A stretch of DNA of 64,000 bases from assembly GCF_053078305.1 (NCBI RefSeq), contig NZ_CP166879.1. One strand, 5' to 3'. Shown here one piece after another: positions 43,878 through 46,104 of this stretch; the stretch's first letter is position 1; every line of letters starts with the position of its first letter. The position numbers and the translations under genes are program-made. The notes beneath the pieces were generated by a model. The model made no database searches and was not told the origin of the DNA. It saw only the letters and a program-made list of their open reading frames with translations.

Positions 43878-44765
43878 TTAAGATTCAGGTGTAAATTGCC
43901 AACGAGTTTCGATAACCAGCGGCCTATCTGGTGTCACCAATTCCGGCGTTAGATTTATTGCGTTAGGTGCCTGAGTCAGCGGGTTAATACAGGTGGCATC
44001 GGGCTGTTTATCAAATACCACCAGACTGTTTGCAGAAGAGATCATGGTCATCGCGAGTTTACCAGGCCACAGTAACTTAACCTTCACCCCGTCATAAAAA
44101 CCAAAACAGTCATCCCAGGGACCGACTTGAGGAGAGATGCGATTTCCAGTTGGCAGTTCATCACTACCCGCTTCTTCTTGCCAGTCCGCATCAAAAAGCA
44201 CCTGCAACGATTCTGTATTTTGCGGAGTCAGCTTTTTCGCAAACCACGGATGCCAGCCTGCGGAGGCCGGGAATGTATCGGCATATGAATGGACTTCCAG
44301 TTGCAAAACCAGCGCATCGTTCTCCAGCAAAAAAGTCTGAATCACTTCCCCTTGCCAAGGCCACGGTGAAGCCAGGGGCATACGTAAAGTCAGGGAATCT
44401 GCTGTTTTGTCGATGATTTCCCACGTTGAGTAACAAGCCATACCATGCAACGCATGTGGTGGTTTATTGGCGGGTAAAGAATAACATTGCCCACCAGCAT
44501 TCAGCGTCGCATTCCCCAGTCGCCCTGCCCACGGCACCATTGGGAAACAGCCATACTGAAAAGCTCTACGCTGCGGCTGCCATTGGCGTAATACTTCAGA
44601 ACCAAATGCCTTTAACGAGGTTATCCTGGCACCATCATGCGGATAAATCTGCAGGTGAATATTGCCTTTTTCCAGCGTCACTAACTCTCCTACAGGCCCA
44701 GGCCATGGCGCGTCAAACGCCTGTTGTAGCGCCAGGTAATGCTCGTTTTTTCGTTCAGTTTTCAT
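43878..44765 (-). CDS. Aldose 1-epimerase (mutarotase)-like protein
   Basis: YihR-like fold-level features; start uncertain: ATG at 44765 gives 295 aa with a 7-nt gap after the upstream stop, ATG at 44810 gives 310 aa with overlap. Confidence 0.6.
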   Translation of the reverse strand: MKTERKNEHYLALQQAFDAPWPGPVGELVTLEKGNIHLQIYPHDGARITSLKAFGSEVLRQWQPQRRAFQYGCFPMVPWAGRLGNATLNAGGQCYSLPANKPPHALHGMACYSTWEIIDKTADSLTLRMPLASPWPWQGEVIQTFLLENDALVLQLEVHSYADTFPASAGWHPWFAKKLTPQNTESLQVLFDADWQEEAGSDELPTGNRISPQVGPWDDCFGFYDGVKVKLLWPGKLAMTMISSANSLVVFDKQPDATCINPLTQAPNAINLTPELVTPDRPLVIETRWQFTPES

Positions 44766-46104
44766 GAGATTGTTCCCTGATGTAGCGGTAAGAAGCGGTT
44801 TCTTGTTCATCGGTCGGCTCAATCAGCCAGACGCAAACAAAGGAAAGAACTGAGACAGCAAATAAAAACAGAGCGACATACCACGGTTTTCCTCCCCCTA
44901 GCGCCAGCAAACTTGAGGCGATAAGGGGGCTTAGTCCGCCAAGAATCGCGGAAAATTGATAAGCAAAAGAAAGGCCGGTATATCGTACTTTGGTACCGAA
45001 CATGCGGGTGAAAAGTGTTGGCTGCACGGCAAACATCATCGTCGGACCTAAGTTGTAGCCGAGGATCATACTGCACCAGATGATGAGCGTACTTTTGCTA
45101 TCCAGTAATAAGAAGAAAGGAAACGCGAACAGGACACAAAATCCTGCTCCCGACAAATACAGACTTTTTTGACCTATACGATCTGATAACCATCCAACCA
45201 ATGGACAACTGAAAATACCGATCGCCGAGGCAATCAACATACCCGTCAGGGGAATATCTCGCGATAATGCTAATTGGCTGGAAATATAGACAATACCAAA
45301 GGCGTTAATAATATTAGAGGAGACACTTTCCGCCAGCCTCGCACCCAGTGCCAATAAAATATTTCGTGGATGTTTTTTGAATAATTCAATCAACGGAGGA
45401 ACGGACTTTTCTTTATTATTCGTCGTTTTTTGCTTTTGAAAATCCAGCGTTTCTTCGGTATGCAGGCGGATAAACAGCCCAACGATCAACATCACCGCAG
45501 AAAGCCAAAACGGAATGCGCCATCCCCAGGAGAGAAACTGCTCCGAAGTAAGAAAATGGTTACAGAGAGCAAAAATACCGGTTGCCAGCATAATACCCAC
45601 AGACGCAGCCGTTTGCGGGAGTGAACCTAAGAATCCGCGTCGGGATTCGGGCGCTGATTCTATGGTCATCAATGCCGCTCCACCGTACTCGCCACCAAGA
45701 CCAAAGCCCTGAATCAAACGCAGCACCATTAATACAAGCGGTGCCCAAATGCCAATTTCCTGATACGTCGGAATAAAACCAATCAAAAATGTGGAGCAAC
45801 CGACAATAGCCAGCGTCCAGATAAGTGTTATTTTTCGCCCGATTTTATCGCCAAAATGACCAAAGACGATGCCCCCTAAAGGACGAGTCAGAAAACCGAC
45901 ACCAAAGGTCGCAAAGGAAGCTATAAGACCTATAAAAGGATCGCTGTCTGGATAAAACAGCGGTGCAAATACCAGTCCTGCTGCCGTGCCAAAAATAAAG
46001 AAGTCATACCATTCCATTAACGCGCCTGCGAAACTGCCCATAACGACACGTCTCATGGCTTTACCGGAAAGCCCTTCACGCGGTGCGGGTAACTTTTCAG
46101 ACAT
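44755..46104 (-). CDS. MFS transporter, metabolite:H+ symporter (MHS, ProP/KgtP-like) family
   Basis: 449-aa polytopic ORF with GHFGDKIGRK MHS signature; AGGAGAGG Shine-Dalgarno; not a GPH-family YihO/YihP-type sequence. Confidence 0.75.
   Translation of the reverse strand: MSEKLPAPREGLSGKAMRRVVMGSFAGALMEWYDFFIFGTAAGLVFAPLFYPDSDPFIGLIASFATFGVGFLTRPLGGIVFGHFGDKIGRKITLIWTLAIVGCSTFLIGFIPTYQEIGIWAPLVLMVLRLIQGFGLGGEYGGAALMTIESAPESRRGFLGSLPQTAASVGIMLATGIFALCNHFLTSEQFLSWGWRIPFWLSAVMLIVGLFIRLHTEETLDFQKQKTTNNKEKSVPPLIELFKKHPRNILLALGARLAESVSSNIINAFGIVYISSQLALSRDIPLTGMLIASAIGIFSCPLVGWLSDRIGQKSLYLSGAGFCVLFAFPFFLLLDSKSTLIIWCSMILGYNLGPTMMFAVQPTLFTRMFGTKVRYTGLSFAYQFSAILGGLSPLIASSLLALGGGKPWYVALFLFAVSVLSFVCVWLIEPTDEQETASYRYIREQSHEN

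Follow-up and report, generated by a model that had tools for sequence, protein, structure and literature searches.

The 64,000-nt stretch of DNA analysed here (the window) is from E. coli, and between yihN and yihX it carries a module of eight genes that replaces the ompL-yihOPQRSTU / yihV-csqR genes of K-12 (Table 1). Genes for a YihW-like regulator and a YihV-like kinase are transcribed divergently from the remainder, which follow in the order YihU-like reductase, YihT-like aldolase, zinc-dependent alcohol dehydrogenase (Zn-ADH), two MFS transporters and, last, an epimerase-like gene. Whereas YihN and YihX on the flanks match those of K-12 at 98-99% identity, identity to the K-12 counterparts is only 67-72% for the four Yih-like proteins. 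On NF012005 the YihU-like protein reaches 579.5 bits, above the cut-off of 348; the 449-aa transporter reaches 406.8 bits on the MHS model TIGR00883 (cut-off 443.45), with the shikimate transporter model as its best named relative (409.7 bits against a cut-off of 538), and the window's Zn-ADH lies below every NCBIfam cut-off. The Zn-ADH gene is interrupted in the window by a nonsense codon, E65* (GAA to TAA, 48524-48522); two other E. coli genomes have intact copies, and the window's other seven module genes are intact as well.

Table 1. Features of the module and of the transporter-epimerase junction, in window coordinates.
Feature	Position	Strand	Basis or remark
Epimerase-like CDS, 295 aa	43878..44765	minus	start ATG 44765-44763, stop TAA 43880-43878; PF01263, RefSeq, orthologue alignment, AlphaFold, Foldseek
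Rejected 19-codon N-terminal extension (TTG 44822, ATG 44810)	44766..44822	minus	encodes the transporter C-terminal tail in another frame
11-nt overlap ATGAAAACTGA, epimerase start and transporter stop	44755..44765	minus	direct sequence reading
MFS transporter, metabolite:H+ symporter type, 449 aa	44755..46104	minus	Pfam Sugar_tr and MFS_1
Second MFS transporter, 477 aa	46203..47636	minus	
Zinc-dependent alcohol (polyol-type) dehydrogenase (Zn-ADH), interrupted	47706..48716	minus	comparison with intact copies
YihT-like class I aldolase	48749..49636	minus	67% identical to K-12 YihT
YihU-like sulfolactaldehyde reductase	49661..50539	minus	72% identical to K-12 YihU; NCBIfam NF012005
YihV-like PfkB kinase, divergently transcribed	50712..51608	plus	68% identical to K-12 YihV
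YihW/CsqR-like DeoR regulator	51648..52436	plus	72% identical to K-12 CsqR

We find the module locus in 1342 of 5426 complete E. coli genomes (~25%), with strains 83972, NC101, APEC O1 and ATCC 25922 among the carriers. The full set of eight genes is also found together in Citrobacter, Mixta, E. lignolyticus, Budvicia, Vibrio, R. palustris and Sutterella, where the chromosomal sites are unrelated and the gene order is the same in most cases, with a slight rearrangement in R. palustris; Budvicia and Vibrio have a class II aldolase in place of the class I aldolase. In the shorter loci retrieved for Raoultella, Klebsiella and Citrobacter S2-9, the part from Zn-ADH to the epimerase-like gene has the same arrangement.

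The epimerase-like gene lies within a 314-codon open reading frame on the minus strand (43878..44822), whose first codon is a TTG (44822-44820), with further in-frame start candidates at ATG 44810 (codon 5) and ATG 44765 (codon 20). The original prediction had these coordinates right, including both ATGs, a 68-nt overlap of the TTG-initiated frame with the transporter, which follows from the extent of the transporter ORF, and an N-terminus that changes by up to 19 residues with the choice of start. It erred in having a 7-nt gap separate the transporter stop from ATG 44765. The 3' end of the transporter gene reads ...CAT GAA AAC TGA, with the TGA at 44757-44755, and since ATG 44765 lies upstream of this stop codon, by 8 nt, the two genes in fact overlap by 11 nt, ATGAAAACTGA.

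YihR orthologues had been proposed as the reference for deciding between the candidate starts. We find that YihR orthology is to be rejected, with 27% identity over 164 aa and 33.8 bits on NCBIfam NF011719 against a cut-off of 251; the proposed alignment, when run, gives 22-27% identity and N-termini that do not align. YihR is so distant that it makes a poor reference for the start, and the gene's own orthologues were therefore used instead. A database search returned 480 homologues, and 34 of these, at 43-74% identity, were aligned; they represent at least 15 genera, drawn from actinobacteria and from the alpha-, beta- and gammaproteobacteria (Citrobacter, Mixta, Raoultella, Klebsiella, Scandinavium, Limnobaculum, Budvicia, Vibrio, Rhodopseudomonas, Rhodovastum, Telmatospirillum, Sutterella, Succinatimonas, Streptomyces and Prescottella). 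Opposite codon 20 the alignment has an invariant Met column, and this Met is the first residue in 34 of 34 orthologues, none of which extends upstream. In a wider set of 109 homologues of at least 260 aa, 77 begin exactly at this column, 24 begin up to 5 residues downstream and 3 further downstream; the five earlier starts are made up of four proteins with 1-5 extra residues and one assembly chimera, and an extension comparable to 19 residues is found in 0 of 109.

The starts of orthologues are themselves gene predictions, whereas stop codons upstream of them are independent of gene callers, and we compared the DNA of ten orthologous loci from ten genera or species in this respect. In eight of the ten, an in-frame stop precedes the conserved ATG by 1-15 codons and no ATG, GTG or TTG occurs between the two, and in Budvicia a TAA directly abuts the ATG; departures from this pattern are seen in Mixta, where one TTG lies at -10, and in Vibrio, which has ATGs in tandem at -1 and -5. 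The stretch that corresponds to the extension is broken by in-frame stops in two species of Citrobacter, in Raoultella, in Klebsiella and in the E. lignolyticus-like locus. In the epimerase frame, amino-acid identity rises from 0.21-0.37 across the 19 codons before the ATG, where most relatives have stops, to 0.42-0.68 directly after it in five of six Enterobacterales relatives, the sixth having a 5-residue deletion that defeats this ungapped comparison. In the window, the extension stretch is open in the epimerase frame only by the chance absence of stops.

On the downstream side, the family-specific motif ALQxAFDxPWPGP begins 11 residues past the codon-20 Met, and the next start candidate, a GTG at codon 48, would remove it. 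An AlphaFold model of the 314-aa ORF has a mean pLDDT of 91.3 and a first helix at residues 19-34, with residues 1-18 below 50, although low values over residues 1-19 are partly expected because no sequences in the alignment cover them. The start question has, moreover, already been answered by public annotation: in independent E. coli genomes with an identical locus, RefSeq has the start that corresponds to ATG 44765, as an 888-nt "aldose 1-epimerase" CDS of 295 aa that overlaps the MFS gene by 11 nt (in one such genome, transporter 9197..10546 and epimerase 10536..11423). The window protein and WP_000846261.1 share this 295-aa reading and differ by one residue, A214V; there is no difference of substance from the RefSeq CDS, and the 314-aa ORF is merely longer than what is annotated. 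We conclude from these sequence comparisons that the epimerase-like gene almost certainly starts at ATG 44765 and that its product has 295 aa. This was the start originally preferred, if for a reason that was partly mistaken (the 7-nt gap), and the longer N-terminus that was to count against it does not appear among the orthologues; ATG 44810, then regarded as plausible too, is not equally so. The 19-residue extension is a longest-ORF artefact.

Initiation signals, by comparison, carry little information on this choice. Anti-SD duplex energies are -3.1 kcal/mol for TTG 44822, -5.9 kcal/mol for ATG 44810 and -5.2 kcal/mol for ATG 44765, none of which stands out from the background in the transporter ORF, 31% of whose positions are at -5 kcal/mol or lower, so that SD strength does not discriminate between the starts. 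Population data cannot discriminate between the reading frames either, since identity at the junction is 99% or higher throughout the 1342 E. coli genomes with the locus. It is true that the frame is open back to 44822 and that the duplex at ATG 44810 is marginally better, as would suit a protein of 310 or 314 aa that starts at ATG 44810 or TTG 44822 and carries an N-terminal extension specific to E. coli. Such a start is hardly credible to us, however, as the extension is absent from all homologues compared, is predicted to be disordered, is unused by RefSeq and lies in a frame that is closed by stops in most related genera, and as it would need out-of-frame internal initiation 46-68 nt inside the actively translated ORF of a membrane protein. 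We consider it very unlikely, too, that initiation is dual, with ATG 44765 as the main start and low-level use of ATG 44810 in E. coli yielding a minor isoform longer by 15 residues; both ATGs have weak SD-like matches and the sequence does not forbid this arrangement, but the upstream ATG is not conserved outside E. coli and the isoform has no functional rationale.

With ATG 44765 as the start, translational coupling of the epimerase-like gene to the transporter is plausible. Termination-reinitiation at overlapping start and stop codons is well established, and provides the ground for this suggestion. The SD-like match that precedes ATG 44765, AGGGA at a distance of 9 nt, is weak, and from this and the 11-nt overlap we infer that termination-reinitiation or hand-over is the most likely mechanism: ribosomes that end translation of the transporter would reinitiate at, or pass on to, ATG 44765, and the last two genes of the operon would thereby be coupled in translation. 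The same 11-nt overlap is present in five genera (E. coli, C. amalonaticus, Mixta theicola, Raoultella ornithinolytica and an [Enterobacter] lignolyticus-like contig), and is kept despite ~50% nucleotide divergence just upstream, with R. palustris showing a 4-nt ATGA overlap. Gaps of 4-45 nt are found instead in Budvicia, Vibrio, Sutterella, K. oxytoca and Citrobacter S2-9, and coupling is therefore not a fixed property of the family, since the separated genes have their own SD in several of these relatives. The junction RNA has a minimum free energy of -16.2 kcal/mol (z = 0.04 against shuffles) and is thus folded no more stably than shuffled sequence, so that no structure enforces coupling; a promoter and terminator scan of 43600-46300 returned nothing near the junction, with promoter-like sites at or below shuffle expectation, and the lack of a promoter-like site ahead of the gene is in line with coupling.

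ATG 44765 might instead be used independently of the transporter, by de novo binding of the 30S subunit at the weak AGGGA, with the overlap incidental. The absence of a structure that forces coupling would be in keeping with independent initiation, as would the SD elements of the separated orthologous loci (GGAG in Sutterella, AGGAG in Vibrio and AAGGAA in Budvicia), but SD-like elements are weak in E. coli, Citrobacter and Mixta, and retention of the overlap in five genera through extensive upstream divergence argues against an incidental arrangement; on balance we regard independent initiation as rather unlikely. The explanation that best accounts for all of these observations, and which we hold to be highly probable as a whole, is that a 295-aa protein starts at ATG 44765, that TTG 44822 and ATG 44810 are chance in-frame codons in the 3' end of the transporter gene and the 314-aa ORF a product of longest-ORF calling, that translation is likely coupled to termination of the transporter, and that the gene is the terminal one of an eight-gene yih-like module and not a YihR orthologue. 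The practical lesson is to annotate the gene from 44765 and to avoid the name YihR. Little is at stake in the start site itself, which is a routine point of annotation; what deserves a second look is the eight-gene module and its epimerase-like protein without the catalytic Glu.

By profile and by modelled fold, the predicted product is a member of the aldose-1-epimerase/galactose mutarotase family. The Pfam PF01263 match scores 78.6 bits over residues 47-231 of the 314-aa ORF (gathering cut-off 27), and the AlphaFold model has the mutarotase beta-sandwich fold, its top Foldseek matches being 3nre, B. subtilis GalM, human GALM and L. lactis GalM at TM scores of 0.70-0.76. Three residues of the mutarotase active site, H107, H172 and D218 in the 295-aa numbering, show no variation among 110 family members and are aligned with those of YihR; we take them to be the equivalents of H96, H170 and D243 in L. 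lactis GalM. Where the C-x-E-P motif has the catalytic Glu, the window protein has an Asn (C-I-N-P, N261), presumably equivalent to E304 of L. lactis GalM. Among 110 homologues this position is occupied by Asn in 71, by Glu in 38 and by Ala in one, and both YihR and PDB 3os7 have Glu at the position aligned to N261. Since Asn replaces the catalytic Glu, we describe the protein as a member of the family and not, with confidence, as an active mutarotase.

The sulfonate-binding residues of the core enzymes, as defined in PMC8006165, are all kept: K27, N109 and R138 together with D244 in the YihV-like kinase, K193, S226, S227 and R253 in the YihT-like aldolase, and R123, N174 and S178 in the YihU-like reductase. 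An SQ isomerase (YihS or SqvD) and the sulfoquinovosidase YihQ are absent from the module in E. coli and in seven other genera, 9-kb flanks included. The reviews and cluster surveys of sulfoglycolysis that a literature search brought up cover isomerase-containing clusters only, and in the searchable literature we found no described pathway with the gene set of the module. It is conceivable, and we put this forward tentatively as something possible rather than probable, that the module encodes a complete pathway which is horizontally mobile and acts on some other sulfonated sugar or sulfo-polyol; the Zn-ADH, and possibly also the epimerase-like protein with its Glu-to-Asn change, would then replace the SQ isomerase and deliver sulfofructose to the conserved core of kinase, aldolase and reductase. 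If this is true, the tight overlap with the MHS transporter gene would reflect matched output of an importer and the first substrate-handling protein.

The one publication that we found to touch the module locus describes a "short yih cassette", yihTUVW, which is reversed relative to K-12, enriched in pathogenic strains and present in Nissle 1917, where it is not induced by SQ (Kaznadzey et al. 2025, PMC12608037); strains with the short cassette are reported to be without yihQ or yihS homologues elsewhere in the genome (PMC12608037). The short cassette and the module of the window share the same site, the reversed orientation and a YihW identity of ~72%, the paper also giving 72% for YihW. It presents a truncated cassette of four genes and makes no mention of four further genes, whereas the module in the window has eight. 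Synteny of the eight genes extends over alpha-, beta- and gammaproteobacteria, and they look like a distinct module rather than a truncation. The module takes the place of the K-12 sulfoquinovose cluster in about one complete E. coli genome in four, with Nissle-type and many extraintestinal pathogenic strains among them, and where the literature sees a truncated four-gene cassette with no clear role, a conserved eight-gene module with its sulfonate-binding residues in place points to a testable search for the substrate.

The junction with the transporter resembles known overlapping coupled gene pairs, with overlaps of the ATGA type and longer, in that both genes are on one strand, the start of the second shortly precedes the stop of the first, the overlap has been conserved among relatives and the SD is weak; overlaps of 11 nt are less common than those of 1 or 4 nt. 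As regards the epimerase-like protein, the closest solved structure is that of YphB (b2544, PDB 3nre), a putative aldose 1-epimerase of E. coli K-12, with a profile E of 1.6e-19 and a Foldseek E of 4e-21 (TM 0.73-0.78), but identity to YphB is 22%, and YphB has neither the N-terminal helix conserved in the family of the epimerase-like protein nor its AFDxPWPGP motif. YihR, the sulfoquinovose mutarotase of K-12, shares with the epimerase-like protein the PF01263 domain, the fold and the His/His/Asp alignment, and the yih-type clusters that encode the two occupy the same place on the chromosome, between yihN and yihX. The two nevertheless differ at the active site, where YihR has the catalytic Glu in an EP motif and the epimerase-like protein the Asn of an NP motif, and in their surroundings, since YihR has YihQ and YihS as neighbours, whereas the epimerase-like gene is accompanied by the Zn-ADH and the two MFS transporters.

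What has been published as the 'short yih cassette (yihTUVW)' is in reality a module of eight genes, and all eight co-occur at unrelated chromosomal sites in seven other genera, which belong to the alpha-, beta- and gammaproteobacteria; for three additional genera, the fetched loci are shorter and cover the stretch of the module from the Zn-ADH to the epimerase-like gene. The kinase, aldolase and reductase of the module retain every sulfonate-binding residue, and neither an SQ isomerase nor a sulfoquinovosidase is present in the module.

Features of the module and its surroundings, with coordinates
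Feature	Location	Coordinates
Module: YihW-like, YihV-like, YihU-like, YihT-like, Zn-ADH, MFS, MHS-type MFS, epimerase-like	window	43878-52436
yihX, mechanical ORF	window	43138-43758
yihU-like gene, mechanical ORF	window	49661-50740
Codon 261, epimerase-like gene	window	43983-43985
Palindrome	window	46168-46201
Zn-ADH gene, minus strand	window	47706-48716
Zn-ADH premature stop	window	48522-48524
Transporter-epimerase junction	Klebsiella oxytoca (L012)	2950-3000
Class II aldolase	Budvicia (L007)	3949-4812
Class II aldolase	Vibrio (L009)	4259-5140

The composition of the module is altered by non-orthologous displacement in Budvicia and Vibrio, where a class II (F_bP_aldolase) enzyme occupies the position of the class I (DeoC-type, YihT-like) aldolase. 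The Zn-ADH gene of the window carries a premature stop, E65* (GAA to TAA), which falls within the GHE motif, and the gene is unbroken in E. coli D8 and AR_0077; the stop is either a strain-specific pseudogene mutation or a sequencing error. The 98-nt spacer separating the two MFS genes contains a perfect 15-bp palindrome, TTAATGCGCATCGGC-TTAA-GCCGATGCGCATTAA. No T-run follows it on the transcribed (minus) strand, so that it is not an obvious terminator, and it could instead stabilise the mRNA or serve as a site for protein binding.

The longest-ORF artefact that extends the epimerase-like gene upstream past its best-supported start also affects the neighbouring yihX and yihU-like genes. The mechanical ORF of yihX begins at GTG 43758 (206 aa) and the RefSeq start is ATG 43737 (199 aa), while that of the yihU-like gene reaches GTG 50740 (359 aa), with the annotated start at 50539 (292 aa). 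At the K. oxytoca junction, an earlier stop ends the transporter gene 45 nt upstream of the epimerase ATG, the ancestral transporter tail (..SYRYSREHS..) survives in non-coding form and the epimerase gene keeps its start, which reveals that the overlap can disappear without the start moving. One homologue from a Logan assembly (P0028, 338 aa) is a chimera in which the Zn-ADH N-terminus leads into the epimerase-like protein, represented by its C-terminal two-thirds (99% identity). This points either to the loss of both MFS genes by deletion in some E. coli assembly or to an assembly error.

Codon 261 of the 295-aa epimerase-like protein encodes Asn. Across the family, the corresponding position is Asn in 71 of 110 homologues and Glu in 38, with both variants found within the same eight-gene module. 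In mutarotases, YihR included, this position is instead the catalytic Glu of a C-x-E-P motif.
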